Assembly: GCA_050486505.1 (NCBI GenBank)
Contig: JBJHDK010000003.1
Location: 8,287-72,286, forward strand
Direction: 5' to 3'
Length of the DNA stretch: 64,000 nucleotides
Origin: Fibrobacteria bacterium
Lineage (GTDB): Bacteria; Fibrobacterota; Fibrobacteria; UBA11236
Under the pieces are notes generated by a model. The model searched no databases. It saw only the letters and a program-made list of their open reading frames with translations, and was not told the DNA's origin. The translations under genes were made by a program, and so were the position numbers. Shown piece by piece: positions 11,419-64,000 of this stretch (position 1 is its first letter; each line of letters begins with the position of its first letter).

Positions 11419-12456
11419 CTACTCCAGGCAACCCTGTCCGCGCCGGATGTCGTTTACCCGGATTTCCCCGTCCTTGAAGCGGGCACGCATGCGCGTCTCC
11501 GAAGCTCCATCGTGGATGCATGCCGCAGGCAGCGCGACCGGACGGTAGAGGGGGGTCTCGTTGGGAAAGACTTCGTCGTCGGGGCGCACGTATTCGCCCA
11601 GCAGGATTTTGGGAGCGTCATTGACCCCCACCATTTCGACACGGATGAGCATCCCGGGAAGATCAGGGCAGACGTTGCTCACGATTTGCGCGAGACTGTA
11701 TTCATCCTCCACGTGACCGTTGACCTCGAAGGCGAAGGCGGTGCTCGTGAGACTGTCCAGAAGGCATGTGGCCCATGTGGAATCGGCATCGCCCAAGAGG
11801 CCGATGCGTCCTTCTTCCAGCAGGGCGGAGTCTTCCCCGGAGACTTGCACGAAGCGAAGGCCGCGGGGGTGTGCGCGAAAGCGGATTTCCGGCTCCAGGT
11901 GGGCGGCTTCCGGAGGCATCAGACCAAGATCGTACGTTCCGTCGGGAAGGATGGGAGCGAACCTGCTCGTGCCCCGGAGGAAGACGGTGCCCTCGTCGGG
12001 CAGGTATCCCGATTTAAGGCGGACCGATCCATTGAAAGACTCCGGCGCGCGCGCCAGAAAACGGGCCGTGTCGCGCTCAGTCGCCTTGAAGGCACGGACC
12101 GTGTCGAGAATGACCATGATGCCGAGCAGCCTTCCTTCGGCCATGTAAACTCCCGGTTGCCGGACAGTGAAGGACGTAAAGCCATGGGCGTCGGTTCGTG
12201 GGGCGGTGACAGCGGGCGAGGCTCCGGAGTCGGGGCGCGATTGCGCGTGGCGCAGCTCGAGTTCGACTCCCGCCACGGGGACTCCGGAGCTGTCCACCAC
12301 GCGGGCACGCATGTGGACGGGTTGGAGCCCGTTTTCGGTGTCGGTTCCCGTCCCCCCCATGCATGCTGAAAAACCGGACAACACGAGGAGAAACCCGGCA
12401 GCGAGTCGGACCAGTCCCCTGACAGGGAGATGCCGGCGGAGGATACCCCCGCTCAT
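11419..12456 (-). CDS. Lipoprotein, hypothetical (signal peptide plus a LSGFSAC lipobox-like cysteine)
   Basis: N-terminal hydrophobic segment ending in Cys. Overlaps the upstream TIGR02147 gene by 4 nt. Confidence 0.6.
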   Translation of the reverse strand: MSGGILRRHLPVRGLVRLAAGFLLVLSGFSACMGGTGTDTENGLQPVHMRARVVDSSGVPVAGVELELRHAQSRPDSGASPAVTAPRTDAHGFTSFTVRQPGVYMAEGRLLGIMVILDTVRAFKATERDTARFLARAPESFNGSVRLKSGYLPDEGTVFLRGTSRFAPILPDGTYDLGLMPPEAAHLEPEIRFRAHPRGLRFVQVSGEDSALLEEGRIGLLGDADSTWATCLLDSLTSTAFAFEVNGHVEDEYSLAQIVSNVCPDLPGMLIRVEMVGVNDAPKILLGEYVRPDDEVFPNETPLYRPVALPAACIHDGASETRMRARFKDGEIRVNDIRRGQGCLE

Positions 12457-25206: not shown

Positions 25207-26730
25207 ATGTCTGTTAGAAACGGGAAGTATGGGGCCGGTTACTGGCGCCTCGCTGGTGCGGCGATTGTTGCCGTGACCTTGGGTGCCGCCGCGACTGTTG
25301 AAGCACAAAACTGCCAGGCCTTCACTTCGGCCGCCGATGTCAACGCCAACGCTGGCGCTTCCCCGAACGTCTGTGCCTTCAATGAGGCCGTCAACGTTCA
25401 GGCCCAGACCAACATCAAGCATGTCCTTCTGTATGACTGGTCCGCAGGCGGCCACAACCGCGGCCATACCCAGCGCAACATGCTCCGCCTCGCTCGCGAC
25501 TATGGCTTCCGCCTTGACCGCAGCCAGGCCCAGACCTACATCACCGCCTCGACCTTGCAGGGCGTCGACATCGTCGTTTTCAACAACGGTGACCAGGACC
25601 CCCTGCAGAACTCGACCTCGCTTCAGGCGATGCGCAACTACATCGAGCTGGAAGGCAAATCGATGTTCGCGACCCACGCGGCACTGGCCTTTATTCCGTG
25701 CCCGAACGAGGACATGACCAATGCCAACTGCCGTTGGTTCCTGCGCGCATACCGCACGCAGTTCTGGCAGCACAACAACCACTCCTCCAACGCGACCGCA
25801 CGAATCTACGTCGACTCGGTGACGATCGGCCAGATCCCGCCCAATGCGATCGGTGTTGACATCCAACCCGCAACCCTGAACCACGGCAAGACCAACGAGG
25901 CGACGCGCAACATCTTCGCCGACATCGAAACCATCGGAATCGCCGATCCACGCCAGCAGCTCCCCATGAATGGCGGGACCGGCGCCACGTCGACCAGCCG
26001 CCACATCTGGGACGCTCTTTGGGACGAGTGGTACAATTATCGTAATCACCCCCGCCGTGAAAACAACGTTGCGGGCACGAACTACGGTGTTGCCGGCGGT
26101 CCGACCTATGGCCCCATCAACATCCTGTTGAGCCTTGACGAAACGTCCCAGCCCAACAACGTCGGCTGCAACCAGTCGTCGCCCTGCAAGACGGGTGACC
26201 GTCCGATCTCGTGGACGCGCACAGTGGGCTTCGGTCTGGCTGCCTACAACAACGCCGGTCACGGCGACGTGTTCATCCGTACGCGCAGCGTCGGTGGTGC
26301 GACGGTCAACGACAGCTTGATGCAGAAGTACAACTGGCGCCTGATGAAGTATCTGGCCCGCGACTACGTGGGATGCATGGATCCCGGATACGAGGAATAC
26401 AACCCGCAGGCCTCCGTCGAATGGCTGACCCTGATCGACAACCAGGCGCCCTGCCAGACACCGGTCTCGGTTCTTCCGGGGACAGGCCGCAACGGGATGC
26501 TTCCCGGGGTTCGGGTTGAGGCCGGCGTGGTTCGCGTTCCGACTCCCGAGCATGGCGCTTATCGCGTGCTCATCACCGACCTGAACGGTCGTACGGTGTT
26601 CTCGCAAGCCGCGCTTGGGGGAGCTTCCACCCAAATGATCGAGGCGACGGGACTGACACGCGGCAACTACGTCCTGCGCGTCACCACTCCTGACCGGGGC
26701 ACTGCGGCCACCCGGATCGCATTGAACTGA
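25207..26730 (+). CDS. Secreted protein (possible ThuA-like/class I glutamine-amidotransferase-like fold) with a T9SS C-terminal sorting domain
   Basis: Signal peptide. C-terminal about 80 aa (AYRVLITDLNGRTVFSQ...GNYVLRVTTPDRGTAATRIALN) matches the Por/T9SS CTD pattern. The ThuA-like assignment is tentative. Confidence 0.7.
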   Translation: MSVRNGKYGAGYWRLAGAAIVAVTLGAAATVEAQNCQAFTSAADVNANAGASPNVCAFNEAVNVQAQTNIKHVLLYDWSAGGHNRGHTQRNMLRLARDYGFRLDRSQAQTYITASTLQGVDIVVFNNGDQDPLQNSTSLQAMRNYIELEGKSMFATHAALAFIPCPNEDMTNANCRWFLRAYRTQFWQHNNHSSNATARIYVDSVTIGQIPPNAIGVDIQPATLNHGKTNEATRNIFADIETIGIADPRQQLPMNGGTGATSTSRHIWDALWDEWYNYRNHPRRENNVAGTNYGVAGGPTYGPINILLSLDETSQPNNVGCNQSSPCKTGDRPISWTRTVGFGLAAYNNAGHGDVFIRTRSVGGATVNDSLMQKYNWRLMKYLARDYVGCMDPGYEEYNPQASVEWLTLIDNQAPCQTPVSVLPGTGRNGMLPGVRVEAGVVRVPTPEHGAYRVLITDLNGRTVFSQAALGGASTQMIEATGLTRGNYVLRVTTPDRGTAATRIALN

Positions 26731-26750
26731 CAAATCTTTCCCGTGAGTTC

Positions 26751-26785
26751 AAAAAAGGCGACCACTGGTCGCCTTTTTTGTTTTT
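26751..26785 (+). terminator. Rho-independent terminator built on the REP core (A6-GGCGACC-act-GGTCGCC-T6)
   Basis: Perfect 7-bp arms flanked by an A-run and a T-run. Potentially bidirectional. Confidence 0.65.
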
Positions 26786-26964
26786 ATCCGTATCCGCCGC
26801 GATCTTATCAAAACGATCTTTTTATGAAAGAGTGGTCAAGGTTACCCTATATTCGTTAGTAACTTGAGGATATTTAGGTCTAATTAAAGTAAAGTCAAAA
26901 AAATAACCGACTTCAGTTGGTATTTTTTATATTAGGTATGCATTCTTGAACAAAGTTGGGGAAA
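26786..26964 (+). promoter_or_regulatory. Strikingly AT-rich island of about 175 bp upstream of ilvB. Putative promoter/UP region, possibly with an attenuator-like hairpin (ACCGAC-ttca-GTTGGT followed by ATTTTTTAT)
   Basis: Base composition far below the flanking DNA. Contains TTG and TA-rich motifs and a small hairpin with a T-tract. Confidence 0.35.
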
Positions 26965-28680
26965 ATGCAGAAAAAAATTTGCACAGGCGCGGAGGCCCTG
27001 ATCCATTGTATGGAGCAGCAAGGTGTCGAATACATGTTTGGGCACCCCGGTGGTGCCGCGATCCCGATTTTTGACGCATTGGTGGACTCTTCCATCAAGT
27101 TTATCCTGACGCGCCACGAACAAGGTGCAACCCACATGGCCGACGGCTACGCGCGCGCGTCCGGAAAGGCCGGAGTTTGCCTGGTGACCTCGGGACCGGG
27201 GGCAACCAATACCGTGACAGGCCTTTTGACGGCGCTCATGGACTCTGTGCCTATCGTCGTGGTTACGGGGCAGACCATCCAGAGCATGTTGGGTCTGGAC
27301 GCTTTCCAGGAAGCGGACGTGTCGGGTTTGACCTATGCGACCGTGAAACACTCGTATCTGGTGCGCGATCCCAAGGATATTCCCAGAATCGTCAAGGAGG
27401 CCTTCTACATCGCTGAAAGCGGCCGCCCGGGCCCCGTGCTCATCGATGTGCCCAAAGACGTTTCCGGTGCCCTCTTTGAGCCGGACTATAACGTCGAAAT
27501 CGACCTTCCGGGATACTCGGTTCCTTCGGGCGGCGATTCCGTCGCGATCGCTCGGTGCGCCGACCTGCTTCAGCAGGCGAAGAAGCCGCTTCTCCTCGTG
27601 GGACACGGTGCAGTCATTGCCGACGCCAGCAAGCCACTCAAGGAGCTCGTGGAGAAACTGCAGATTCCTGTGGTGAATACGCTCCATGGAAAGGGCGCAT
27701 TCCCCGAATCACATGAGCTCAGCCTCGGCATGCTCGGCATGCATGGAACCGCCTATGCCAACAAGGCGGTGGTAGAATGTGATCTCATCATGTCCATCGG
27801 CTCCCGCTGGGACGACCGCATCACAGGCAAACTTTCGCACTTCTGTCCCGATGCCGTTAAAATCCACGTGGACATCGATCCCGCGGAAATCGGCAAGATG
27901 GTCCGTCCGGATTGCGCCATCGTAGGCGATGCGCGCCTCGTGCTCGAAGAACTGCTGCCGCAGACGCGCAAGGGCGATACCGCCGCTTGGGTCTCACATG
28001 TCAAGAAGCTGCGCAAGCGCTTCCCCCTGCAATATCGCAAGCACGGCGGGCTCAAGGCGCAGTACGTTCTCGATGAGTTATACCGCATTACCAAGGGCAA
28101 GGCGATCGTGACGACGGACGTCGGGCAGCACCAGATGTGGGCGGCGCAGTTTTACCGCACCGACCAACGCAACTATTGGATTTCGAGCGGTGGAGCCGGC
28201 ACGATGGGCTTTGGCATGCCCTCTGCCATTGGCGCGCAGCTCGCCAAACCCGACGCCCTGGTCGTCGCAGTCGTAGGTGACGGCGGCTTCCAGATGACGC
28301 AGGCGGAGTTGGCGACTGCAGCAGTCAACAAGCTCCCGATCAAAATCCTGATCCTGAACAACAGGTATCTGGGGATGGTGCGCCAGTGGCAGAGTCTTTT
28401 CTTCGACAATCGCCTCTCCGGCGTGGACCTCGAAGGGAACCCCGATTTCGTGAAACTTGCGGAAGCCTATGGCATGAAAGGCTTCCGCATCAAGCGGAAC
28501 GCCGACGCGGGTCGCGTACTCGAGCGGGCCTTGGACTATAATGAAGGCCCCTGCATCATCGAAGCGGAAGTCGAGAAGGAAGACAACGTCTTTCCGATGA
28601 TCCCCGCGGGCGCGAGTTATGAGGAAATGGTCCTCGAGGCTCCGCGCCACAAAATGGAAAAGCCCACCGGAAGCACTTGA
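26965..28680 (+). CDS. ilvB: Acetolactate synthase large subunit
   Basis: TPP-enzyme motifs ([12 protein letters not shown]). N-terminus [32 protein letters not shown]. Confidence 0.9.
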
Positions 28681-51218: not shown

Positions 51219-51306
51219 AATGGACCCGGTGGACCCGATGGACAGCATGGACTTTATGGACAGAAAATGGATGACCGCCTTGTCCATAAAGTCCATGCTG
51301 TCCATC
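51219..51306. repeat. Perfect 26-bp inverted repeat (GATGGACAGCATGGACTTTATGGACA / TGTCCATAAAGTCCATGCTGTCCATC) embedded in a run of 9-bp ATGGAC-type direct repeats
   Basis: Arms at 51237..51262 and 51281..51306 with an 18-nt spacer. The right arm abuts or overlaps the htpG stop codon. The ATGGAC motif recurs about 7 times with a 9-10 nt period. Confidence 0.6.
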
Positions 51307-53191
51307 AATTTTCGCCGCCGCCCAGCGCTTCCTTCAACAGCCCGTTCACCTTGGCGACGTAGCCTGCCGGGTCGCGGGGTTCCGAGCCCTCGGCGAGCAG
51401 GGCCTGGTCGACGAGCACCGCGTACCAGTCCGTCAGCTTCGCATCCTGCGGGTCGGCTTCGAAGCGGGCTTTCAGACGGGCGATGATGGGATGCTCCGGG
51501 TTGATTTCGAGGATGCGCTTGCTTTCGGGAACCTTCTGGTTCGACATCTTCAGGATGCGCTCCAGGTTCGCCCCGAGCTCGTCCTCGCCCGACACCAGGC
51601 AACAGGGGCTCTCGTCGAGCCGCGAGGTGACCCGTACTTCCTTGAGCGTTTCGCCCATCTTCGCCGCGAAGTCTTCCGTAAACGTCGCGTAGTCGCCCTT
51701 GGCCTTCTCTTCGCGTTCCTTCTCCTCCTTCGTCAGTTCGCCGAGATCAAGCGCGCCCTTGGCCGCGTGCACGAGTTTTTTACCGTCGAAGTCGGGCAGG
51801 GCCTGCACCACCCATTCGTCGATCGGGTCGACGAGGTACAGCACCTCCACGCCCTTCTTGCGGAACACTTCGAGGTGCGGGCTGCCCTCGGCCGCTTTGC
51901 GGCTCTCGGCGGTGAGGTAATAGATGTCCTTCTGCCCGTCCTTCATGTTCACCACATAATCCTGCAGGCCGGTCAGCTCGCCCGCCGCGAGTCGGCCCGA
52001 CTCGAAGCGCAGCAGGCGCGTCAACGCATCGAGGTGTTCCCAGTTCATGTGGAACCCCTCCTTCAGCACCGAGCCGAACTCCTTCCAGAACGCCTTGTAT
52101 TTCTCCGGTTCGTCCTTCGCCAATGTCTCGAGAAGGTTCAGCGACTTGGTCACCGCCGATTCCTGGATCTTGCGCACCACGGCATTCTTTTGCAGGATCT
52201 CGCGCGACACATTGAGCGGCAGATCCTCGGAGTCCACCACGCCGCGCATGAAGCGCAGCCACGACGGCAGCAGTTCCTTGCAGTCATTCATGATGAACAC
52301 CCGCTTCACGTAGAGCGAAAGCCCGTGCGGGCGGTCGGGGTAGAAAAGGTCATGGGGGGCCTTGGAGGGCACGTACAGCAGCGTGGTGAACTCGAGCGTG
52401 CCCTCGACCTTGTTGTGGGACCAAGCCAGGGGAGCTTCCGTGTCGTGGGACAGGTGCTTGTAGAATTCCGCGTGCTGCTCCGCAGACACCTCGCCCTTGG
52501 GGCGGCGCCACAACGGGGCGCGGTCGTTGAGGATCTCTTCCTCGCCCTTGTCGTTCACAAGGGCGATGGGGTGGGTGACATACTCGCTGTACTTCTTCAC
52601 GATCGACCGCACGCGCCAGTCCTCGAGGAACTCCTTCGCGTCGTCCTTGAGGTGCAGCTCGATCACCGTGCCGCGCTTCTCCTTCTCGGTCTCTCCCAGC
52701 GTGAACGTCCCGTCGCCGGTGGATTCCCAGCGCAGGGCCGGGCCGTCTTCCCCGAGGCGTCGCGTCTCCAGGGAGACCCGGTCGGCCACCATGAACGCGG
52801 AATAGAACCCCACGCCGAATTGGCCGATGAGATTGGCGTCTTTCTTCTGGTCTCCGGTGAGCGATTCCAGGAACTTCTTCGTTCCCGAGTTGGCGATGGT
52901 GCCGATGTTGCGGATCACTTCCTCGCGGTTCATGCCGATGCCGTTGTCGATGATGCGCAGGACGCCTTGATCCTTGTCCGCCTCGAGGCGGATCTTGAAG
53001 GCGGAGTCGGCCCCCAACAGTTCCGTGTTCGTCAGCGACTCGAAGCGGGCCTTGTCGATGGCGTCCGAGGCGTTGGACACGAGCTCGCGCAGAAAGATTT
53101 CGCGGTTCGAGTAGAGGGAATGGATCATGAGGTGCAGCAGCTGCCGGACCTCGGTCTGGAACTCCATTTTTTCGGGTGCTTGCGTTGTCAT
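51305..53191 (-). CDS. htpG: Molecular chaperone HtpG (Hsp90)
   Basis: GHKL ATPase N-terminus (LVSNASDAIDKAR, GQFGVGFYS). Length 628 aa. Confidence 0.9.
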   Translation of the reverse strand: MTTQAPEKMEFQTEVRQLLHLMIHSLYSNREIFLRELVSNASDAIDKARFESLTNTELLGADSAFKIRLEADKDQGVLRIIDNGIGMNREEVIRNIGTIANSGTKKFLESLTGDQKKDANLIGQFGVGFYSAFMVADRVSLETRRLGEDGPALRWESTGDGTFTLGETEKEKRGTVIELHLKDDAKEFLEDWRVRSIVKKYSEYVTHPIALVNDKGEEEILNDRAPLWRRPKGEVSAEQHAEFYKHLSHDTEAPLAWSHNKVEGTLEFTTLLYVPSKAPHDLFYPDRPHGLSLYVKRVFIMNDCKELLPSWLRFMRGVVDSEDLPLNVSREILQKNAVVRKIQESAVTKSLNLLETLAKDEPEKYKAFWKEFGSVLKEGFHMNWEHLDALTRLLRFESGRLAAGELTGLQDYVVNMKDGQKDIYYLTAESRKAAEGSPHLEVFRKKGVEVLYLVDPIDEWVVQALPDFDGKKLVHAAKGALDLGELTKEEKEREEKAKGDYATFTEDFAAKMGETLKEVRVTSRLDESPCCLVSGEDELGANLERILKMSNQKVPESKRILEINPEHPIIARLKARFEADPQDAKLTDWYAVLVDQALLAEGSEPRDPAGYVAKVNGLLKEALGGGEN

Positions 53192-54797: not shown

Positions 54798-55718
54798 CTA
54801 CCTCAACCCTTCCTCCAGCTTCCGGTCCATGTGCGAATCGTCCACGGGATCGAGGTGGATGTTGATCGACCAACGACCTTTCTCGAGGCCGCGGATGCGC
54901 ATCTCGATCTCGTCGGCTACGCGGTGGGCTTTGCCCAGGGGCATGTGTTCGTTGAAGACAAGATGGAATTCCACGAAATTCACTTCGCCGGAACGACGGG
55001 TCTTGAGCTCGTGCATGCCGTTCACCAAAGGTGAATGTGTCATGGCGATTTCCTCGATTTTTTCCACCAAGCCATCGTGGAGGGCACGATCCATGAGCAT
55101 GTCGTAAGCCTTGCGTAGCAGGGGAATCGCCTCGCGCATGATGTAGAGGCCCACGAAGATCGCGAGAAGTGGGTCGGCCAGTTCCCACCCACTGGCCAGG
55201 ATAATCAGCATTCCGAGGAGTACGCCGGCGTTCGCCCAAACGTCCATCCGGTAATGGAGAGCGTCGGCCTCGAGCACCAGGCTGCGCGACTTTCGCGAGG
55301 CGGCGCGCAGGTAGAGCACCAGAGCGGCTGAAACGAGCATCGAGACGACCATCGCCCCCACGGCGAGATTGAGACCCGAGGAATCGAGCGGGACCGGCTC
55401 CACGATCTTGCCGATCGCCTTGTACAGGATGAAACCCGCCGAACCGAGGATCAGAACGCTTTCGAACAGGGCGGCGATCCCTTCGAGTTTGCCGTGACCG
55501 TAGTTGTGCTCCGCGTCTCTGGGCTTGTCGGCGACCCGCACCGTGATCGCGTTGAACAGGGAAATGATGAAGTCCAGGAATGAGTCCACCGCCGAAGCCA
55601 GAACCGCAATCGACCCCGAGAGGATTCCTACGATGGTCTTGAGGACAGCAAGTGAAAACGAGGTGGCGGTGGTAACCAGCGTCGCGCGACGGGGGACGGA
55701 AGATTTCGGCGGGGTCAT
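54798..55718 (-). CDS. czcD: Cation diffusion facilitator family transporter
   Basis: CDF TM domain with HxxxD motifs and a C-terminal cytoplasmic domain. Confidence 0.85.
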   Translation of the reverse strand: MTPPKSSVPRRATLVTTATSFSLAVLKTIVGILSGSIAVLASAVDSFLDFIISLFNAITVRVADKPRDAEHNYGHGKLEGIAALFESVLILGSAGFILYKAIGKIVEPVPLDSSGLNLAVGAMVVSMLVSAALVLYLRAASRKSRSLVLEADALHYRMDVWANAGVLLGMLIILASGWELADPLLAIFVGLYIMREAIPLLRKAYDMLMDRALHDGLVEKIEEIAMTHSPLVNGMHELKTRRSGEVNFVEFHLVFNEHMPLGKAHRVADEIEMRIRGLEKGRWSINIHLDPVDDSHMDRKLEEGLR

Positions 55719-55933
55719 GACGGCGCAAAATTAGTTCCGGCATCGACACGTGTTTCGTTATCGAAAATGCCGTTTTTTCAGGGCTGGTGCTACGAACCAC
55801 CCCTTCTTTAAGGAGATTCTGTTATGAATTGGGCGATATTGTCAGACAAACGGCTTGCGTTTTTATGCAAAACGAAATAGGTTGGCAGTACCCCGCGGTT
55901 TGCGGGAACCATTTCAAATAGAGGGAGTTAAGC

Positions 55934-56794
55934 ATGAAGACAAAGGTCACCCTGGCATGTCTTGCTTTGGTTGGTGCGGGTTTCGCAGCGGATATGCGCA
56001 TGCCTGTTGCGCCCGGTGTCGTGGAGTTGAGCGCCGGAATTTCGCTGGATCGGGTTACGGGAGCTTATGATGCCTCGGGCTCGTTGAACGAGGACGCTGT
56101 CGGCGCGGGCTCGCCGATCGTCTACGGTCTTCCCTTGCGTGCCGAGTACGGGGTCATGCCCGGGCTCAGCATCGCCCTGACCTTGCCGGTCATCATTGAG
56201 GAATCCTCGGTGACCCCCACCGTGTCGGGAGGTCGCACGGGCATCGAGCGCCCCGAACTCATGGTCAAGTACGCGGTGCCCGATCTTGGTGTCGCCGGTT
56301 TTCTGAACATTTACGTTCCGTTCGGTCTGGGTGACAATGCCGAATTGCCGGCGACCATGCGCCTGGACAGGCGGACGACCGAGGCGGGTGACCCGGGTGC
56401 GGCGATTGCCATCGGTGCGGTCTACAGCAACACATTCGCCGGAAACTATAGGGTTTCGGGGTTGGCGGCTTACCAGTACAGCGTCCCCTATACCGACGGT
56501 GATGCCAAGAACAGCGACGTGATCACCGTTGCCGTGAAGCCGGAATATCGCTGGGATGCGCAGGTCGGCACCTATCTCGGCATCCGCTACAACCATGTCC
56601 TGGAATCCAAGGACAGTGATGGCAACGCCATTCCGAACATCGAGGGCTATCGCCTTACGATCGCTCCCGGCTTCAACCTGGTCCAGAACGAGCGAATTGC
56701 CTACGATGTGGCAATCCCCGTTACGGTTGCCGGTGAGAACCAGTATGCTTCATGGGGGTTGCATGGAACCGTGCGGGTAACCTTGCCGCTTTGA
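55934..56794 (+). CDS. Secreted putative outer-membrane beta-barrel protein, hypothetical
   Basis: Signal peptide with alternating amphipathic beta-strand pattern. C-terminus VRVTLPL. Confidence 0.55.
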   Translation: MKTKVTLACLALVGAGFAADMRMPVAPGVVELSAGISLDRVTGAYDASGSLNEDAVGAGSPIVYGLPLRAEYGVMPGLSIALTLPVIIEESSVTPTVSGGRTGIERPELMVKYAVPDLGVAGFLNIYVPFGLGDNAELPATMRLDRRTTEAGDPGAAIAIGAVYSNTFAGNYRVSGLAAYQYSVPYTDGDAKNSDVITVAVKPEYRWDAQVGTYLGIRYNHVLESKDSDGNAIPNIEGYRLTIAPGFNLVQNERIAYDVAIPVTVAGENQYASWGLHGTVRVTLPL

Positions 56795-56817
56795 ATCGAG
56801 AGACACCCAAAAGGAAA

Positions 56818-56845
56818 AGCCCGGGAAACTCCCGGGCTTTTTTTG
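56818..56845 (+). terminator. Rho-independent terminator (AGCCCGGGA-aac-TCCCGGGCT followed by T7)
   Basis: Perfect hairpin plus T-tract. Confidence 0.65.
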
Positions 56846-56860
56846 TCGTGCGATTCTCCC

Positions 56861-58495
56861 TTATTCGACATCGCGGCACAGGATACGGTGGGTCTCCCCG
56901 TTCGCCCGGCAGAAGGACTTGAGTCCTTCAGTGCAGGCCGGGAGTTCGCCGGTGTCCCAATAACCGAGTTCGCATCTCTTCCAGAGGATGCGCTGGCACT
57001 CGTTGCGCAGGGGGCCGGCTTCGCACTCCGCGCGCACGGGGGCGCATTCCGCGACGCTCGCGGGATAATCGTTCTCGATGCACCATCGGCGTTCGCTCTC
57101 CTGTTTCCTCACGGGGTTCTGAGCCGCCCAGATCGCTGCCGAGTCGCATAGCCCGGGCGGGGCGGCCGGGCCCTCCACGGGGTCGAGACAGGTGGACATG
57201 GCATCAAGGCGGCAATCGGAACGCTCCCACCCCGTGGCAATGCAATACTCGCGGTAGTAGCCAAGGCAGTCGCGCGAATCGAACCAGCCGTTCTCGCGGC
57301 ACGCGGCGGCCCGCGCCAAAGGGTAGGGAACCGCAGGGGTTGCCCCGTCGAGGCGAATGTGGATGTCGAACGAGTCGACGCCCATGCCCGCGAAGAAACC
57401 CCTCCCTCCCGAAACATTCGTGGGAATGCGGATCTTCGCGTTTCCTCCTGCCTCCTGGATGGCGAGAACATAGTCGGTGTAGTTCTGATCGACCCCGTAG
57501 AAATACAGCCGGTTCAGGCCCGTCCAGAAGAATGCGTTCGAGGTCCCCAGCGAGTCCAGGATCGATCCTCCCGTGGTGTTCGGAAAGTCAGGGAAGAACA
57601 GAAGGCGACGGATGTCTCCGGGGTAATAGAAACCCGACGTATCGGGCCGCAGGCCGAAGAGTTCGTCGAAAAGGGTGAAGGGGCGGGCCTCTGTGGTGTC
57701 ATAACGGTGCGTCATGAGAACGCCGCGCACGTCGTTGCTCCGGAGGGTGCGAAAGAAGTGGGACAGGTTGGAGAAACGGCCTCCCAGATAGAACAACGTG
57801 TCTTCCTTGCCGTATCGTAGCATGTCGTTCTGCAGCCATCCGAGCAGGCGCGCATTCATGCGGTCGCCGTTGCGACGCAGCCATGTCCCAAGCGCGGCGG
57901 AATCCCCGTCCATGGCGGTCAGGGTGTCGCCGAACTCCGCGATGAACAGCGCCCGCGGCCCCGGAGGTAGCTGCATGAATACGGAAGGCTTGAAGATGCT
58001 GTCGAGGCTCGCCCCCACGCCCGCGATGCTGGGCGCGACCGCGGAATCCGCGACTGCGAAGGAGGCGGGGACGTGCGCGACCGCCGAGAGCTCGGTGACG
58101 GTACGCGCGCCGGCGCTGTCCCACACGACGCGGGCGTTCAGGGTATAGCTCTGCCCGTGCATGAAGTGTGCCGCCGTGTCGCCCGCGAAGCAGTTTCCCG
58201 AGCGTACCCTGCGTTGCAGCGCCAAGGTCTGGCCCCCGTTCGAGAAGGTTCCCGAAATCCCGATGGAGATACTGTCGTAAAACGGCTTCGCATCGGTGAA
58301 GGCCTCGTCCAGTGCGAGCAGTCGCTCGATGCACACGTTTTCGACCGGCCGATCCGCCACTGCATACGCCGTCAGGGTCAGACCCTTGAAACCCGGAGTC
58401 CTCTCCGGTTTATAGTCCCACGGCCCGGGCAGGCACCCCGACAGGAACAGCGCGTATCCGGCGAGGATCGGCAGGATTCTAGAAGTAAAACTCAT
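56861..58495 (-). CDS. Lipoprotein with a C-terminal Cys-rich domain (about 20 Cys), hypothetical
   Basis: LSGC lipobox. Last about 150 aa carry many paired cysteines. Overlaps the upstream TonB-dependent receptor gene by 17 nt. Confidence 0.55.
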   Translation of the reverse strand: MSFTSRILPILAGYALFLSGCLPGPWDYKPERTPGFKGLTLTAYAVADRPVENVCIERLLALDEAFTDAKPFYDSISIGISGTFSNGGQTLALQRRVRSGNCFAGDTAAHFMHGQSYTLNARVVWDSAGARTVTELSAVAHVPASFAVADSAVAPSIAGVGASLDSIFKPSVFMQLPPGPRALFIAEFGDTLTAMDGDSAALGTWLRRNGDRMNARLLGWLQNDMLRYGKEDTLFYLGGRFSNLSHFFRTLRSNDVRGVLMTHRYDTTEARPFTLFDELFGLRPDTSGFYYPGDIRRLLFFPDFPNTTGGSILDSLGTSNAFFWTGLNRLYFYGVDQNYTDYVLAIQEAGGNAKIRIPTNVSGGRGFFAGMGVDSFDIHIRLDGATPAVPYPLARAAACRENGWFDSRDCLGYYREYCIATGWERSDCRLDAMSTCLDPVEGPAAPPGLCDSAAIWAAQNPVRKQESERRWCIENDYPASVAECAPVRAECEAGPLRNECQRILWKRCELGYWDTGELPACTEGLKSFCRANGETHRILCRDVE

Positions 58496-60920
58496 AGCTC
58501 AGCAGAAAGGGAAAGAAAGGAAACTGCGGAATCGTAAGCCGTTCCGGAGGGTTGGTCGAGCGGTCATAGCTGTAAAGCAGGACATTCTCGTGATCGGTGA
58601 TGTTCAGCATCGTGAATGAGAAATTCCAGCGGCCCTCGCGCCCCCAGTCCACGGGCTTTACGTCCCAGCGAAAGTAAGAGGGAACGAAGGACATGTTGTA
58701 GCTGCCGTTTTCGGTCTGGATGTTCCCCTGAAATTCCGGCCCGGGCCCTCCCGACGGACGCCCTTGGTTCTGGTCGATCAGGTGGGAGGGTTGGTACCCG
58801 GTCACGCGCGTGTAGGGAAGGCCCGTGGCGTACTTCGCCTGGGTCGAGGACCTGAAATACCGGCCCTGTTTTCGTGACGGCCAGATCCCGTCGCGGCCGA
58901 TCCAGTTCACGGCGAGGTCGGCCTTGGCGCTGTGCGGCTGGTGCCAGCTCGGGAAATACGCCTTCTCGAAGGTTTCCTCGCGAATGACGGCCACGCCGTG
59001 GGCGTAACTGAGGCCGCCTGAAACGACGCCGCCCGGCTTGCGCAACTCCGCTTCGAAGCCGTAGGAATATCCTTCCGCTCCCCGGAAAAAGTCCGCGAAC
59101 TCCGCCTCGGGATCATTCCGGATCGAGTCGGGGACCTCCGCGTCCGGTGCGCTCACGACGAGATCGTAGAGCGCCTTGTAATAGCCTTCGAGCGTGAAGT
59201 CGAAGATTCCGGAGATGTCGCGGCGCGAGTATCCCAACGCGAGAAGAAGCGAGGACGACGGGGGGACGCTTCGATATTTTCCCCTTGTCGCGGGGTAGTA
59301 GAACTCATTGAGATTTTCCTGGTCGCTGAAGAGGATGGAATTCACGTGCTGCACGTAGTAGCCTGCGTGCGCCTCCACCGACTGGTTGGCGGGAAGCTGC
59401 CTGCGCACCGTGAACCGCGGCTCCGCCGTGAAAGCGTTCAGGCCGGTCAGAAAGTTCAGGCGTGCGCCCGACACGAGTTCCCACTCCCGCGCTCCCGCGG
59501 GAATCCACGAGTCCTGCGCGAAGGCGCTCGCCAGCAGGAAATCGGGCGCGTCGCGGAAGGTCACCCCCGCGATGTCCTGGGTGTTGCGAAAAACCACGGA
59601 CGTGTGCTCCAGGCTTCCCCCGAAGAGCAGGCGATGGTCGTCGAGGCCGGTGTACTCCACCGAGTGGCGCAGCTTCCATGTCACGATGTTGTTGTAAAAC
59701 TCGAAGAGGTCCTCCAGCCCGAAGGACTGGCTCATCAGGCTGTACGACAGCGTGGTGGAGGTGGCGAGATCGTTCGAGAAGCGCCAGCGCAGGTTGAGGG
59801 GGATCACGGTGTTGCCCCACTCGATGAGGAAGGGGTCGAACTTCAGCCGGTCCCTGCCTTGGTACACGGAAAGGCCGATCTCGCGGTCCGGGCCGAGGGC
59901 GTAGGCGAAATGCCCCTGCAGGTCGTAGAAGTAATAGTCGAGGATCAGGTCGGTGAGGCCTTGGTCGCGCAGGTAGTCCACCAACTGCCTGATGTAGGTG
60001 GTGCGCCCCGCGAACAGCCAGCTGAAGTCTCCTTGCCGCCCTTCGGTATGCGCCTGCGAGGCGATGGTGCTGATCTTCACGGAGGATCCCCGGAACCACG
60101 TGTCCACCGTGTCGTTCCCCCCCTTCCTCGACTGGATATCGAGCACCGACGACAGACGGTTGCCGTACTCGGGAGGGAAACCGCCCTTGTAGAAGGTCAC
60201 TTCGTCGATGCCTTCGACAAGGAAGGTCGAGAACAGGCCGAAGAAGTGTACCGGGGAGTACACCACGGCATTGTCGAAGAGGATGAGGTTCTGGTCGCTC
60301 GCGCCGCCGCGCACGTAGATCTTCGTGGAGAAGTCGGAGCTGGCGACCACGCCCGGGAGCCCCTGGATCGCGCGGATGACGTCGGCTTCGGCCAGGCCGG
60401 GCAGGCGGCGGATGCGGTCGGCGTCGAGGGTCTCGCGGCCGCCTGGTGCGGAGGCGCGGCGTCCGCGCGCAACGGCGTCGCCCAGGTCCAGAATCTCCGA
60501 GGCGTCATCGGGAGGCTGTATAACGACCGGGGTGACGTCCTCGCTCGCCACTTCGGCGAGGGTGTCCGCGTCCCAGCGGTGGGGATCCGGGTCGACCAGA
60601 AGCACCTGGTCGGGAGTCAGTGCGCCGCCTTCGAGCAGCACGGTGAAGAGCGTGTCGGTTCCGGGCCTTGCGATGCGGAAACAGCCTTCGCCGTCGCGGC
60701 CCCGCGCACAGAGCGTCCAGGAGTCGCGCGCGGGGAGGCGCAGCGAGAAGGGCTGATCGGGAATGATCGACAACGTGTCTCCCGTCTCGAGCACCTCGAA
60801 ACGATACGGGCCGGGCGGCGGAAACGCAACGTCGCCGAGGATCCCGTCGACGCGCACTGTTCCGGTCGCGGCTGCGACGGAGGAGGCAATGAGCAGGGCC
60901 GTGACGAGTCTGGAAATCAT
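58479..60920 (-). CDS. TonB-dependent receptor-like outer membrane protein with an N-terminal extension
   Basis: Plug motifs (DADRIRRLPGLAEADVIRAIQGLPGV, IYVRGG) and a 22-strand barrel-like body ending ...SYEFYF. Start taken at MISRLVTALL. Confidence 0.75.
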   Translation of the reverse strand: MISRLVTALLIASSVAAATGTVRVDGILGDVAFPPPGPYRFEVLETGDTLSIIPDQPFSLRLPARDSWTLCARGRDGEGCFRIARPGTDTLFTVLLEGGALTPDQVLLVDPDPHRWDADTLAEVASEDVTPVVIQPPDDASEILDLGDAVARGRRASAPGGRETLDADRIRRLPGLAEADVIRAIQGLPGVVASSDFSTKIYVRGGASDQNLILFDNAVVYSPVHFFGLFSTFLVEGIDEVTFYKGGFPPEYGNRLSSVLDIQSRKGGNDTVDTWFRGSSVKISTIASQAHTEGRQGDFSWLFAGRTTYIRQLVDYLRDQGLTDLILDYYFYDLQGHFAYALGPDREIGLSVYQGRDRLKFDPFLIEWGNTVIPLNLRWRFSNDLATSTTLSYSLMSQSFGLEDLFEFYNNIVTWKLRHSVEYTGLDDHRLLFGGSLEHTSVVFRNTQDIAGVTFRDAPDFLLASAFAQDSWIPAGAREWELVSGARLNFLTGLNAFTAEPRFTVRRQLPANQSVEAHAGYYVQHVNSILFSDQENLNEFYYPATRGKYRSVPPSSSLLLALGYSRRDISGIFDFTLEGYYKALYDLVVSAPDAEVPDSIRNDPEAEFADFFRGAEGYSYGFEAELRKPGGVVSGGLSYAHGVAVIREETFEKAYFPSWHQPHSAKADLAVNWIGRDGIWPSRKQGRYFRSSTQAKYATGLPYTRVTGYQPSHLIDQNQGRPSGGPGPEFQGNIQTENGSYNMSFVPSYFRWDVKPVDWGREGRWNFSFTMLNITDHENVLLYSYDRSTNPPERLTIPQFPFFPFLLSYEFYF

Positions 60921-61023
60921 GCGAGGGAGGGCCGGGAAGCGGGCAAAGTTAGAACCGCACCGCGTTCTTCGCACCTGAAAAACGCGACGGGAGGGAAAAG
61001 GGACGTTTCATGTCGATGACGGG

Positions 61024-63537
61024 TCACTTGCCGATGCGGATGCCGGCGAATGCCCCGGGCCAGAGGCTTACGTTGTCGTTGATGGTGCGGAGGTAGGGGA
61101 GGTCGGTCCCGGTGAGGGGGACGTCGGTATTGATGTGCGTCGCAACGTTGTACGAAATGCCGCCGAAGACGGAGAAGATCGGAGCCGCCTTCCAGCCCAG
61201 CGCGACGCGCAGGCGGGTCCATTCGGTGGTCACGTCCCCGTCGTCGAACGAGAACCCCTTGGGTTCGAACAGTGTGCTGTAGAGGAGATCCGGTTCGACG
61301 AAGAGGGGCGTGCCCGGGATCCCGAAATGGATTCCGGTCCCGAACGTGGGAGCGATCAGGGTTTGGTCCGCGAGAGGACGGGTGCCGACCGCCAGGATCG
61401 AATAGACGGAGCGAACCCCCGTCCTCAGGCCCGCGTACGCCGTTCCGGTTTCATCCGCCCAGGATTGACCGTGAAAGGAACCCTTGCGGCTGATGTTGAC
61501 GAGCCCGATCGGGAAACCCGACTCATAGTCGCTCGAGAGATTGATGAGCCCGATCTGGTGCCCTTGCACGGTGCCGGCAAGGTTCAGCACCCCGGCTCCC
61601 TGTACCCCCTGGAGCGATCCGAAGGCCATGTTGAAAACCCCCGAGGCCTGGACACCCTCGACGCCACCCGCGGCATTGAAAACGCCCGCTCCCTGTCCGC
61701 CCTGGACGCTGCCGGCGGCTGCGTTGAAGATTCCCGCTCCCTGTCCGCCCTGGACGCTGCCCGCGGCCAGGTTGAAGATGCCTGCGCCCTGCCCGCCCTG
61801 TACATTTCCGGCCGCCATATTGAAGATTCCTGAACCCTGTCCGCCGTACACATTCCCTGCGGCCATGCTGAAGATCCCCGCGCCCTGCCCGCCGTGGACG
61901 CCTCCCGCAGCCATGTTGAAAATGCCTGCGCCCTGCCCGCCGTGAACCCCCCCGGCCGACATGTTGAAGATTCCCGCGCCTTGGAGACCGCGAAGGCTGT
62001 CGGCGGAGATGTTGAAGATTCCCGAGAGTTGGCCTCCCCTCACGGTGTCGGCGGAGATGTTGAAAACTCCGGAGCCTTGCCATCCCTCGACACCGCCGCC
62101 GGCGATGTTGAAGATTCCCGCGCCCTGGACCCCGCGGACGGATCCGCCTGCGATCCCGAAGACGCCCGAGATTTGCGCCCCTGAAAGTTCCTCGCCCACG
62201 ATGCTGCCGACCTGGTTGAGTTGGAACCCCCGCAGCCCGCCCTCGACGGCATTGATGCCGACGGCGGCCTGGTATCCCTCCAGGTCACCCCGTGTCCGGT
62301 TGAAGAGGAAGGAAAGCTGTCCTCCCCGCCTGTTGGCGTGCGCGTCGGTCGCCAGCAACGCGATCTGGGTGCCGTGCCAGTCGTGCCTTTGCACGTCGTA
62401 AAAAATCGAGGAAGAAAACCCCGGCTCCCCGTCGTCGGGAACGCGCTGAAACTCTCGCCGCGCCGAAGCCGTGCCGCCGCGTGTCACGGTCGGTTCCCCC
62501 GACACGGGACGGAAGGAGGCGGGGGTGAGCTGCGTGGCCTGCCCTTCCGTCAGGGTGACGCGGGCCATGCTCCAGTCGGCGCCGCGCAGCAGGCGCACGC
62601 TGTAGGTTCCCGGCGCGAGACCGATGCGCATTTCGCGGCCTGCGGGTTTGTTCAGCTCGGCCGCGAGCTGGTCGAGGCTGTCGCGCAGGAAGAGACGGCC
62701 GTGCAGCGCCTCCGGACGCTCGAGGAAGGCCGATGCCTGGCGCAGGTCGGTGAGCACGATGTCGCCGCTGCCGCTGAGCTGGATGTCGTAGGCGGCATGC
62801 TGCGGGCCTCCCCGCGTTCTCTCGGTGCGCGCCAGTGTCTCGTGGTAGGCGAACTGGTAGGCCTCGTGCAGGGTCACGCGCCCGTCGCGCGAGGCGTCGG
62901 CGGCGCCGCGCAATCCCGTGTTCAGCGCATGGGTGAAGAACGATCCGCCCACGCGGTCGCTTTCCTGCGCCACCTCGCTCTCCGAGGAGGAGGTGAGGAT
63001 CGCGTAGCCTTCAGAGCGTGTGGACTGGTCCACGAGAAACGCGGGAACGTGCTGGCCGCCCTTGATGCGCGTCAGCGCGCCCGAGGCGCAGGCATCCACC
63101 ACGGCGATGCGCACGTCGGCATCGAGCCCGTTCATGCCGTCGCGGAAGGACCGGTACGAAAACCCTTCCCTGCCCAGCAGCAGGCCGCGCTCGTCGGCGT
63201 GCCCGGAGTAATACACGATGGCCTCCACGCGTTCTCCCGCGCGCCTCAGCGACGCGGATTGCCTGCGCAGGTCGGAGAAGGCGCGGGCGATGCCTGCGCT
63301 GTCGGGGTCGAGCAGCACCACCGCATCGGCCGGATCGAGCCCGCCGAGCTCCACCAAGGTGCGTTTGAACGCGGCGGCATCGGATCCGGCGTAGAGCAAA
63401 CGCTCACGTCCCTGACCCCCATCGTGGTGCCCGATCAACAGGGCGACGCGCCGGGTGTTGCCGTCACCGGTGAACGCCGGGGAGGGGGTGGCGCTCCAGG
63501 CCAGCGCGCATGCGAGAAACAGGGCGAGGTGTTTCAT
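61024..63537 (-). CDS. Caspase-like (peptidase C14) domain protein with about 15 tandem 16-aa Gly-rich repeats and a C-terminal putative membrane/beta-barrel domain
   Basis: Signal peptide. Caspase His/Cys dyad context (IVYYSGHADE, AVVDACASG). Repeat GAGIFNMAAGxVxGGQ about 15 times. Confidence 0.7.
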   Translation of the reverse strand: MKHLALFLACALAWSATPSPAFTGDGNTRRVALLIGHHDGGQGRERLLYAGSDAAAFKRTLVELGGLDPADAVVLLDPDSAGIARAFSDLRRQSASLRRAGERVEAIVYYSGHADERGLLLGREGFSYRSFRDGMNGLDADVRIAVVDACASGALTRIKGGQHVPAFLVDQSTRSEGYAILTSSSESEVAQESDRVGGSFFTHALNTGLRGAADASRDGRVTLHEAYQFAYHETLARTERTRGGPQHAAYDIQLSGSGDIVLTDLRQASAFLERPEALHGRLFLRDSLDQLAAELNKPAGREMRIGLAPGTYSVRLLRGADWSMARVTLTEGQATQLTPASFRPVSGEPTVTRGGTASARREFQRVPDDGEPGFSSSIFYDVQRHDWHGTQIALLATDAHANRRGGQLSFLFNRTRGDLEGYQAAVGINAVEGGLRGFQLNQVGSIVGEELSGAQISGVFGIAGGSVRGVQGAGIFNIAGGGVEGWQGSGVFNISADTVRGGQLSGIFNISADSLRGLQGAGIFNMSAGGVHGGQGAGIFNMAAGGVHGGQGAGIFSMAAGNVYGGQGSGIFNMAAGNVQGGQGAGIFNLAAGSVQGGQGAGIFNAAAGSVQGGQGAGVFNAAGGVEGVQASGVFNMAFGSLQGVQGAGVLNLAGTVQGHQIGLINLSSDYESGFPIGLVNISRKGSFHGQSWADETGTAYAGLRTGVRSVYSILAVGTRPLADQTLIAPTFGTGIHFGIPGTPLFVEPDLLYSTLFEPKGFSFDDGDVTTEWTRLRVALGWKAAPIFSVFGGISYNVATHINTDVPLTGTDLPYLRTINDNVSLWPGAFAGIRIGK
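61534..62265 (-). repeat. In-frame 48-bp tandem coding repeats (about 15 copies) encoding the GxGIFN 16-aa repeat
   Basis: CTGGACGCTGCCGGCGGCTGCGTTGAAGATTCCCGCTCCCTGTCCGCC-type units recur with 48-nt periodicity. Spurious ORFs appear on other frames here. Confidence 0.6.
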
Positions 63538-64000
63538 ATTCCGTTTTCCTTGGTGACGTCGAAGCGAACGACGCGGGTGTTTCGGGGCTGCCTGCCCGAC
63601 GGGATGTCGCGGTGGGCATGGAGTACTTCAAGCAAGGGATTCAGCGCGAACGTTCCGTCCGAGACGACCAGGAAGAAACGCTCGTACCCCGGCGCGGCGT
63701 CCAGTTTGAACGCCGACGGCAGCAGGACTTCGCCTCCGCGGAGCGAACCGGCCTCGTCCCCTTGCGCGGGCCAGTGCCGGGTCACGTTTCCGTTTCCGTC
63801 CACCGAGAAAATCGCCCCGTACCGGAAGCCTCCGGACTGATACCCCAGGCGCAGGATGTCGCCGGGACGGGCTTTTCCACCGGGATGCAGTGCCTCCGCG
63901 CCCTCGGTTGTCCTGCGGAACACGGCCAGTTGCGGCTCCAGTCCCTTGATGCGCGTCTCTTCGATCAGGGTTCCTGCGTCGCTGCCGACGGTTCCGGAGG
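63534..64000 (-). CDS. DUF4384-like domain protein, 5'-partial (runs off the window end). The frame stays open beyond the listed start at 63923
   Basis: Motif GDILRLGYQSGGFRYGAIFSVDGNGNVTRHWP resembles DUF4384, a domain that often accompanies caspase domains. ATGA-type overlap with the downstream caspase gene. No stop codon between 63924 and 64000 in frame. Confidence 0.5.
   Translation of the reverse strand, partial: SGTVGSDAGTLIEETRIKGLEPQLAVFRRTTEGAEALHPGGKARPGDILRLGYQSGGFRYGAIFSVDGNGNVTRHWPAQGDEAGSLRGGEVLLPSAFKLDAAPGYERFFLVVSDGTFALNPLLEVLHAHRDIPSGRQPRNTRVVRFDVTKENGI

Follow-up and report, generated by a model that had tools for sequence, protein, structure and literature searches.

Organization of the locus

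This analysis concerns four genes at positions 56861–64000 of a 64,000-nucleotide stretch of DNA from a Fibrobacteria bacterium (contig JBJHDK010000003.1; hereafter the window, whose positions serve as coordinates throughout), and in particular a gene for a caspase-like protein whose relatives are encoded together with a sigma factor of the extracytoplasmic function (ECF) type and an anti-sigma factor. The four open reading frames are co-oriented on the minus strand, and comprise the 3′ part of a gene for a putative single-pass anti-sigma factor (63534–64000; 154 codons and the stop codon, open to the window edge), the gene for the 837-residue caspase-like protein (61024–63537), a TonB-dependent receptor-like gene encoding 813 residues from the ATG at 60920 (58479–60920), and the gene for a 544-residue lipoprotein (56861–58495). 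The stop codon of the partial upstream reading frame overlaps the ATG of the caspase gene by 4 nt (ATGA), the receptor stop and the lipoprotein start overlap by 17 nt, and the caspase stop at 61024 is separated from the receptor ATG by a gap of 103 nt (60921–61023, minus strand). An earlier inspection of the letters (the sequence-only reading) had described these four genes with the same overlaps and gap, and all of them are present.

A terminator scan reveals no terminator-like site in the 103-nt gap and none in the four-gene run until position 56841; nor does the gap hold an ECF-type promoter. A strong intrinsic-terminator-like hairpin (56815–56841, minus strand; 12 pairs followed by the T-rich tail CCTTTTGGGT) lies 20 nt past the lipoprotein stop and marks the end of the transcription unit. 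The region is composed of two juxtaposed units. The first (63534 to beyond 64000, plus 61024–63537, minus strand) is the tail of a sigma/anti-sigma/caspase module, of which the window holds the distal two-thirds of three genes, and the second (56861–60920, minus strand) is the pair of a TonB-dependent receptor and a DUF4249-like lipoprotein. Scans for Rfam families and tRNAs found none in the window, and PADLOC models matched none of the six proteins tested.

A caspase head, a solenoid stalk and an 8-stranded barrel

The caspase-like protein consists of a signal peptide, a Peptidase C14 domain, a beta-sandwich, a beta-solenoid and a C-terminal beta-barrel. The C14 domain (residues 28–253; 62779–63456, minus strand) adopts the caspase/metacaspase fold of the caspase–hemoglobinase type, and matches PF00656 with 41.4 bits (Pfam cut-off 21.4, E = 1.7e-10). 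The catalytic histidine, His113, is found in the context YYSGH (codon at 63199–63201), and the catalytic cysteine, Cys150, in the context D-A-C-A-S-G (codon at 63088–63090). Both residues are invariant in an alignment of 36 homologues and in one of 99 full-length homologues, in agreement with the intact dyad that had been read from the letters. Many residues around the dyad are also invariant across the 99 sequences, which come from several phyla, and this degree of conservation argues for retained catalysis. Cys150 is part of a D-x-C motif like that of metacaspases. Metacaspases with this motif, such as TbMCA2 and Yca1, cut after arginine or lysine, and the presence of the motif suggests an Arg/Lys specificity for the caspase head. 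More than 3000 database proteins match the caspase-like protein, many of them over the full length (about 710–920 residues), and the full-length matches belong to Fibrobacterota, Myxococcota (Archangium, Stigmatella and Cystobacter), Spirochaetota and Pseudomonadota.

An AlphaFold2 model calculated from the 99 sequences has a mean pLDDT of 89. The beta-sandwich (residues 261–345; 62503–62757, minus strand), delimited by the secondary structure and the pLDDT of the model and bearing conserved GRLFIRD...KP.G...G.Y motifs, is followed by a short, disordered linker of low confidence (residues 346–372) and then by the solenoid (residues 373–680; 61498–62421, minus strand), which is regular, with two strands per 16 residues from residue 373 to about 680, and forms a stalk of about 17 rungs. 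The 16-residue repeat reads G-x-Q-G-A-G-I-F-N-x-A-x-G-x-V-x, and about 17 units can be counted at residues 389–660, with about eight of them near the consensus GGQGAGIFNxAAGxVx. At 4.8 Å per rung, the modelled stalk would be about 80 Å long.

The repeat stands at the protein level, whereas the DNA beneath it is far from the near-perfect array of 48-bp copies that had been described. TRF delimits an array inside the stalk (61685–62127, minus strand) with 9.2 copies and 74% matches; adjacent units are 75–83% identical, the best pair of units reaches 87.5%, and no exact repeat exceeds 29 nt. Because the repeat DNA is this imperfect, a slippage hotspot, and with it the proposed hotspot of length variation, is not plausible, and a collapsed-repeat artefact is unlikely. 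The same arrangement of repeats, in differing copy numbers, is found in homologues from independent assemblies, which speaks against collapsed or expanded repeats as well.

The C-terminal anchor (residues 687–836; 61030–61479, minus strand) is an outer-membrane beta-barrel of eight longer antiparallel strands, without any helix, in the model. The closest barrels in a structure comparison, OprF-N, NspA, OmpA, PagL and OmpW, are all 8-stranded. Since passenger export is beyond a barrel of eight strands, the protein's N-terminal part is most likely periplasmic, with the caspase head hung from the outer membrane by the stalk. The sequence-only reading had foreseen both the membrane barrel at the C terminus and the beta-helical stalk; its further proposal, an autotransporter-like protease displayed on the cell surface, is contradicted by a barrel that is OmpA/OprF-like and has 8 strands, and is far less likely than a periplasmic protease.

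A sigma factor, an anti-sigma factor and a caspase form a conserved trio

Related loci were collected from contigs of one genome per species (80 loci), and their six-frame open reading frames were searched with the proteins of the window and of a relative, L001. Neighbours were counted in the 69 non-redundant loci whose caspase gene has 1700 nt or more of upstream DNA. In L001, whose protein is 62% identical, the caspase gene is preceded by genes for an ECF sigma factor (165 residues) and a 287-residue protein, and the genes downstream differ from those of the window. This order recurs among the 69 loci: directly upstream of the caspase gene and on the same strand, the anti-sigma gene is found in 63, the ECF gene in 62, and both in 61. 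The association of caspase and DUF4384 genes noticed earlier is tight by this measure. The genes of the trio usually overlap, often by their stop and start codons, and the loci span Fibrobacterota, Spirochaetota, Myxococcota, Pseudomonadota and Latescibacterota. The trio has no fourth conserved neighbour, as no other family occurs in more than eight of the loci.

In the relatives, the first gene of the trio matches TIGR02937 with 72 bits (cut-off 42.9), as well as Sigma70_r2/r4_2. Directly downstream of it are the anti-sigma orthologues, proteins of 270–350 residues. Their N-termini match PRK13920 and the NCBIfam model 'antisigma' (NF052375) with E = 2e-9 to 9e-5, short of the curated cut-offs, and they share a conserved LER..LGELP motif and a hydrophobic helix, along with a low-complexity linker that varies among them and a C-terminal domain. 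The partial reading frame of the window corresponds to that C-terminal domain. Judged by this homology, the upstream partial gene probably encodes the periplasmic portion of an anti-sigma factor that spans the membrane, and about 180 more anti-sigma codons, followed by the ECF sigma gene, are expected beyond position 64000.

The periplasmic domain (63660–63869, minus strand) is DUF4384-like. On its own, the window fragment scores too low to secure the DUF4384 label given to it earlier, with 18.9 bits against PF14326 (E = 1.6e-3) where the gathering threshold is 27. The label is better served by the orthologues: 16 of 32 orthologous C-terminal domains match DUF4384 (E ≤ 0.01, best 1.4e-6) without a competing family, and the homologue P0305 carries PF14326. 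Just before the domain lies an R-x-K-G motif (RIKG here; 63942–63953, minus strand), of which the R, the K and the G are each at least 90% conserved across 71 anti-sigma orthologues; in alignment A4, K18 is invariant, and R16 and G19 are at least 90% conserved. The conservation of these residues, together with the metacaspase-type D-x-C motif of the protease, makes R-x-K-G a candidate basic cleavage site.

The trio is a widespread, undescribed signalling module. Full texts in the literature yield no ECF/caspase/DUF4384 operon, only the analogues DdvA and craspase discussed below, with the proviso that supplementary ECF classifications may list the ECF group; in the ECF reclassification paper, caspase, C14 and DUF4384 go unmentioned in the main text.

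A promoter motif upstream of the sigma gene and of envelope genes

A dyad, GGT(G/A)ACAC-N14-GGTGTT, lies 40–85 nt upstream of the start of the ECF gene in 54 of 65 loci, compared with a maximum of 6 in shuffled sequences. Both its spacing and its upstream element, which contains AAC, are compatible with an ECF promoter under autoregulation, seen upstream of the sigma gene in relatives only. The classical ECF promoter, AAC-N15–18-CGT, was rejected, being present upstream of the sigma gene in only 7 of the 65 loci, and a TGAAAC...CGTC string in the 103-nt gap of the window is unsupported as a consequence.

A weight matrix of the dyad (training sites 13.8–41.9 bits) was used with a threshold of 20 bits to scan 1.26 Mb, and gave 64 matches, about 44 of which precede an ECF gene. 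Matches are also found before caspase genes without an adjacent ECF gene or before caspase paralogues (L031, L055, L061, L070 and L079; in L055, L061 and L070 directly upstream of a caspase gene without an adjacent ECF gene), before TonB-dependent receptor-like genes (L003, L019, L024, L028, L029 and L072), before the ExbB gene that precedes a receptor gene in L021, and before a few genes for small envelope proteins. The receptor-like genes preceded by the motif include those of several spirochaete loci, and among the 80 loci the motif lies upstream of seven of the eight receptor-like genes that sequence matching identified near a trio, plus those of L089 and L090.

The window itself has no ECF-type promoter: the best matrix score is 5.5 bits, below that of shuffled sequences, and the best score within the 103-nt gap is −10 bits. 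The sole match in the window to the pattern GTGAC-N17–19-GTGTT (63553–63581, plus strand) lies antisense in the 3′ end of the anti-sigma gene and, with 0.25 matches expected by chance, is probably fortuitous.

We note some further sites and genes near the trio. The motif precedes genes for small signal-peptide proteins of 176–190 residues in L009 (about 8583), L034 (about 2202) and L066 (about 4840), each on the minus strand; those of L009 and L066 are transcribed divergently from the sigma gene, and the products are possibly small outer-membrane proteins. In L021, the sites before the ExbB-like gene are at 8208 and 8379 (minus strand). In L074, from Fibrobacter succinogenes, a site at 7950 (plus strand) precedes a 199-residue flavodoxin/NADPH-FMN-reductase-like gene just upstream of the sigma gene. 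Shorter caspase-domain paralogues (about 315–366 residues) adjoin the trio in L031 (4760–5707), L069 (7355–8419) and L079 (12446–13546); the promoter motif is just upstream of the paralogues of L031 and L079 with more than 20 bits, and for L069 only a looser pattern match is found, at the start of the reading frame.

The same stalk and barrel carry other heads

A search with the stalk and barrel returns 4484 clusters at 50% identity, including proteins without a caspase domain. Several members have an STN and CarboxypepD_reg-like head in place of the caspase. Three STN-headed genes could be placed on contigs (L091, 4468–7941; L093, 3389–7055; L094, 3300–7241), and all three stand in trios of ECF sigma factor, FecR and STN-stalk-barrel protein. 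The latter appears to be a non-transporter outer-membrane partner of FecR-type anti-sigma factors. In FecA/FecR signalling, contact with the anti-sigma factor is made by the STN domain. As the STN heads follow ECF and FecR genes, the head of the stalk-barrel protein probably engages the anti-sigma factor and, by analogy, the caspase head would occupy the position equivalent to STN, opposite the DUF4384 anti-sigma factor.

An HtpG/HSP90 gene is present in the window at 51305–53191 (minus strand), a few kb downstream of the stalk-protein module. An HSP90 gene is likewise found downstream in the STN-headed loci L093 (10032–11939) and L094 (8472–10520), which could be coincidence or lineage synteny.

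The receptor and the lipoprotein belong to a separate operon

The receptor-like protein contains a Plug domain (60156–60452, minus strand; PF07715, 34.1 bits against 23.9, E = 4e-8), and its size of 813 residues and C-terminal ...YEFYF fit a 22-stranded TonB-dependent receptor. Pfam detects neither a TonB_dep_Rec barrel (PF00593) nor an STN domain in it, and there is no sequence match in the PDB; for the receptor-like protein noted earlier, the Plug has profile support, and the barrel fits by size and C terminus.

The lipoprotein has the anticipated lipobox (LSGC, with Cys21), and contains 17 cysteines rather than about 20, 14 of which are located in residues 399–540. Its family is small (50 homologues, all Fibrobacteres-like), and 7 of 49 members match DUF4249 (PF14054; best 3.4e-6), the window protein itself being without a Pfam match. 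The position of the gene downstream of a TonB-dependent receptor also fits DUF4249 proteins. In the model (pLDDT 89.8) two beta-sandwich domains are followed by a Cys-rich helical C-terminal domain, and the structural neighbours are generic Ig-like proteins only. On the evidence of its family, the lipoprotein is probably a divergent DUF4249 relative.

In five loci (L083–L087) with no caspase module nearby, the operon runs from the TonB-dependent receptor and the lipoprotein to DUF3450, ExbB, ExbB, ExbD, TonB and TPR genes, and then to genes for a 263-residue protein and a cation-efflux protein. In L003, L004, L088, L089 and L090 the trio stands directly upstream of the receptor operon, and these loci and the window are the six genomes that share the order from caspase to receptor. 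The promoter motif, conserved here as GTGACAC-N14-GGTGTT, precedes the receptor gene in L003 (33 bits), L089 (30.4 bits) and L090 (28.7 bits), and was not found there in L004, L088, the window or L083–L087. The three receptors with an ECF-type promoter are thus likely regulon targets in their genomes, and the receptor operon is a probable target of the sigma factor in several relatives and some spirochaetes.

The receptor pair occurs without the caspase in L083–L087, and more than 85% of loci have the caspase trio without the pair, so that the four genes do not make up a single conserved unit or machine. The coupling of the caspase to the receptor and lipoprotein, as the sequence-only reading had it, is retained as a probable link in those relatives that share a promoter (L003, L089 and L090), and is lost as a single conserved system. 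In the source genome, any coupling between caspase and receptor would have to come from transcripts that read through as far as the terminator (56815–56841).

Genes of about 350 residues without a Pfam match are inserted between caspase and receptor in L088 (10412–11482) and L089 (10442–11488 and 11563–12642), and the L089 gene at 11563 has its own ECF-type promoter at 11498. TonB, ExbB and ExbD genes accompany the receptor in L003, L004 and L083–L090, but not in the window, and no Ton genes are detected elsewhere in its 64 kb at E < 1e-5. The block of six genes found in L003, L004, L086 and L090 (DUF3450, ExbB, ExbB, ExbD, TonB and TPR) is absent from positions 54798–56861, where the lipoprotein gene is followed by the terminator, a homologue of the 263-residue protein (55922–56794, plus strand) and the cation-efflux gene (54798–55730, minus strand). 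It looks as if the Ton cluster has been deleted or relocated in the window. Elsewhere in the window, a short AT-rich island with A and T runs (about 26600–27200) has a GC fraction of about 0.47, compared with about 0.60 in its flanks.

A proposed signalling pathway and its alternatives

We favour, with a modest degree of confidence, a reading in which the trio is an ECF signalling module whose outer-membrane-tethered caspase gates the anti-sigma factor, and in which the receptor and lipoprotein form a separate unit. The anti-sigma factor would have a cytoplasmic sigma-binding N-terminus, a single pass through the inner membrane, a flexible periplasmic linker and the C-terminal DUF4384 domain, and the protease head would engage its DUF4384 end. 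Upon an envelope signal, the head would cut at or near R-x-K-G, ahead of DUF4384. This cut would be the site-1 step, after which an intramembrane protease would finish the anti-sigma factor and the sigma factor would be released, to drive its own operon from GGT(G/A)ACAC-N14-GGTGTT and, in some lineages, the receptor and Ton genes as well. Fusions of DUF4384 with caspase and other protease domains are frequent (PMC6426788, PMC7475262, bioRxiv 10.1101/2022.08.17.504292), and those with caspase hint at a physical link between both domains. Caspase-fold proteases that gate ECF sigma factors have precedents in DdvA/DdvS (PMC6061681, PMC11506125) and in Csx29/Csx30/RpoE (bioRxiv 10.1101/2022.08.17.504292).

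Several points weigh against this gating mechanism. Cleavage, basic-residue specificity and the contact between head and DUF4384 are predictions, the periplasmic topology is derived from the 8-stranded barrel of the model only, and the anti-sigma and DUF4384 assignments depend on sub-threshold matches. The ECF gene, the N-terminus of the anti-sigma factor and the promoter lie outside the window, so that their presence in the source genome is deduced from orthologous loci, and the lack of the motif in the window leaves the control of its own receptor by the sigma factor unproven. The motif is partly palindromic in some loci, and may instead be the site of a dimeric regulator. A 'molecular ruler' prediction, in which the length of the stalk would correlate negatively with that of the anti-sigma linker, failed (r = +0.38, n = 26). 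Finally, five loci carry the caspase gene without its adjacent partners.

These five loci also bear on the first alternative, which we regard as unlikely but worth serious attention, namely that the caspase is output only: a periplasmic protease, anchored in the outer membrane and induced by stress, that would serve envelope quality control, remodelling or self-destruction, with the anti-sigma factor sensing via DUF4384 without any protease. The caspase gene is indeed co-transcribed with, or itself carries, an ECF-type promoter, ECF operons often contain effector genes, and the caspase gene keeps the motif in four of the five loci where it stands apart from a sigma/anti-sigma pair; extra caspase paralogues likewise occur without an adjacent pair. 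A mere effector, however, is not readily reconciled with the very close linkage of the three genes across phyla, where a stop codon often overlaps the next start, nor with the recurrent fusion of DUF4384 to caspase domains (PMC6426788). Paralogues with an STN head, moreover, take the same third place after ECF and FecR, and for STN a role as sensor or transducer is established.

That parallel is exact enough to invite a second alternative, binding without cutting, in which the head docks on DUF4384 as STN does on FecR and signals by conformation or occupancy, the dyad being kept for another substrate or for self-processing. The head of the ECF/FecR/STN-stalk-barrel trios is a non-catalytic binding domain, and the CHAT domain of DdvA has an incomplete active site, with no cleavage shown (PMC11506125). 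A docking function would nevertheless leave unaccounted for the invariance of His113, Cys150 and many nearby residues in 99 sequences from several phyla, as well as the conserved basic motif that falls precisely on the anti-sigma factor's domain boundary, and we consider this alternative improbable. A four-gene envelope machine, with a surface-displayed autotransporter-like caspase that works with the receptor and lipoprotein, for example by cutting extracellular proteins for import, is the least credible of all, because its co-oriented genes without a terminator before 56841, the order shared by six genomes, the promoter shared with the receptor in several relatives and the resemblance of the solenoid to passengers of autotransporters and two-partner secretion (TPS) systems are set against an OmpA-like barrel of 8 strands, too small for passenger export, a receptor operon with Ton genes that exists without the caspase, trios that mostly lack the pair, and the genes inserted between caspase and receptor in L088 and L089.

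If the caspase-gated pathway is correct, it has a bearing on proteins beyond this locus. Bacterial caspase homologues are abundant and almost none has a known substrate or role; here, one gains a testable candidate, as its substrate would be a defined anti-sigma factor with R-x-K-G as the candidate cut site, and its output an ECF sigma factor whose promoter can be recognised. Culturable carriers of the module include Fibrobacter succinogenes and many myxobacteria, among them the genera Archangium, Corallococcus, Stigmatella and Cystobacter. DUF4384 would gain a function as the protease-facing module of anti-sigma factors, and the periplasmic module, craspase/Csx30/RpoE and the fused DdvA would be variations on one theme. 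The exchangeable heads of the stalk-barrel proteins suggest a general wiring between the outer membrane and ECF sigma factors without a TonB-dependent transducer. More tentatively, and as a possibility for which we would claim less than for the pathway itself, the stalk and small barrel might define a large undescribed class of outer-membrane partners of ECF/anti-sigma pairs, in which the head (STN or caspase) matches the anti-sigma domain (FecR_C or DUF4384), and the caspase branch might be the first stand-alone caspase-family site-1 protease of an ECF pathway, reading the state of the outer membrane or envelope and controlling uptake genes in some lineages.

Comparison with known systems

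One of the closest known systems is DdvS/DdvA of Myxococcus xanthus, an ECF sigma factor and a transmembrane anti-sigma factor with a periplasmic TPR-CHAT region (PMC6061681, PMC11506125). In both systems a caspase-fold module with a His/Cys dyad, presumed periplasmic here, goes together with an ECF sigma factor and its anti-sigma factor, which here is a putative single-pass one; a site-1 cut is proposed to precede RseP, and the promoter is autoregulated. However, the DdvA protease is of the CHAT type, forms part of the anti-sigma factor by fusion and acts on itself in a dimer, whereas here it is a separate C14 protein on a solenoid stalk and barrel. The anti-sigma factor here carries DUF4384, its orthologues (270–350 residues) being without TPR-CHAT, and the visible targets are envelope and uptake genes, unlike the defence island that forms the DdvS regulon.

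In craspase (Csx29 TPR-CHAT, Csx30 and RpoE), a caspase-like protease cleaves a sigma-binding, anti-sigma-like protein, and one group of Csx30 C-terminal domains is DUF4384, as on the anti-sigma factor described here (bioRxiv 10.1101/2022.08.17.504292). Craspase is cytoplasmic, RNA-guided, CRISPR-linked and of the CHAT type, whereas the present module has no CRISPR context, a membrane anti-sigma factor and an outer-membrane-anchored C14 protease.

Like FecA in the FecI/FecR/FecA system, the caspase-like protein is an outer-membrane protein that would offer a periplasmic N-terminal domain to an inner-membrane anti-sigma factor controlling an ECF sigma factor; the Fec targets include a TonB-dependent receptor, as those of the present sigma factor probably do in some relatives, and the STN-headed stalk-barrel paralogues follow ECF and FecR genes. 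The differences lie in the small barrel and stalk in place of a 22-stranded transporter, the protease head in place of STN, an anti-sigma factor that is not FecR, and the lack of STN on the receptor of the window. As in RseA/DegS/RseP, a periplasmic site-1 protease would trim a single-pass anti-sigma factor and free an ECF sigma factor, but DegS is a serine protease of the inner membrane activated by porin C-termini, and the candidate site-1 protease here is a caspase-fold cysteine protease anchored in the outer membrane.

With type Va autotransporters the protein shares a beta-helical passenger-like region. Unlike these and the TPS systems, it has a barrel of 8 rather than 12 strands, no predicted alpha-helical linker, and a 16-residue solenoid of another sequence family; with such a barrel and no helical linker, export of the N-terminal part is not expected. 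The second unit resembles the receptor and DUF4249 pairs with a TonB2-like cluster of the FCB group, by its Plug receptor, the overlapping lipoprotein gene and the Ton cluster of its orthologues, and differs by a lipoprotein without a direct Pfam match, an extra Cys-rich helical C-terminal domain and the missing Ton genes. In sum, the stand-alone C14 protease, its anchoring by a solenoid stalk and small barrel, and the DUF4384 anti-sigma factor set the module apart from the known systems.

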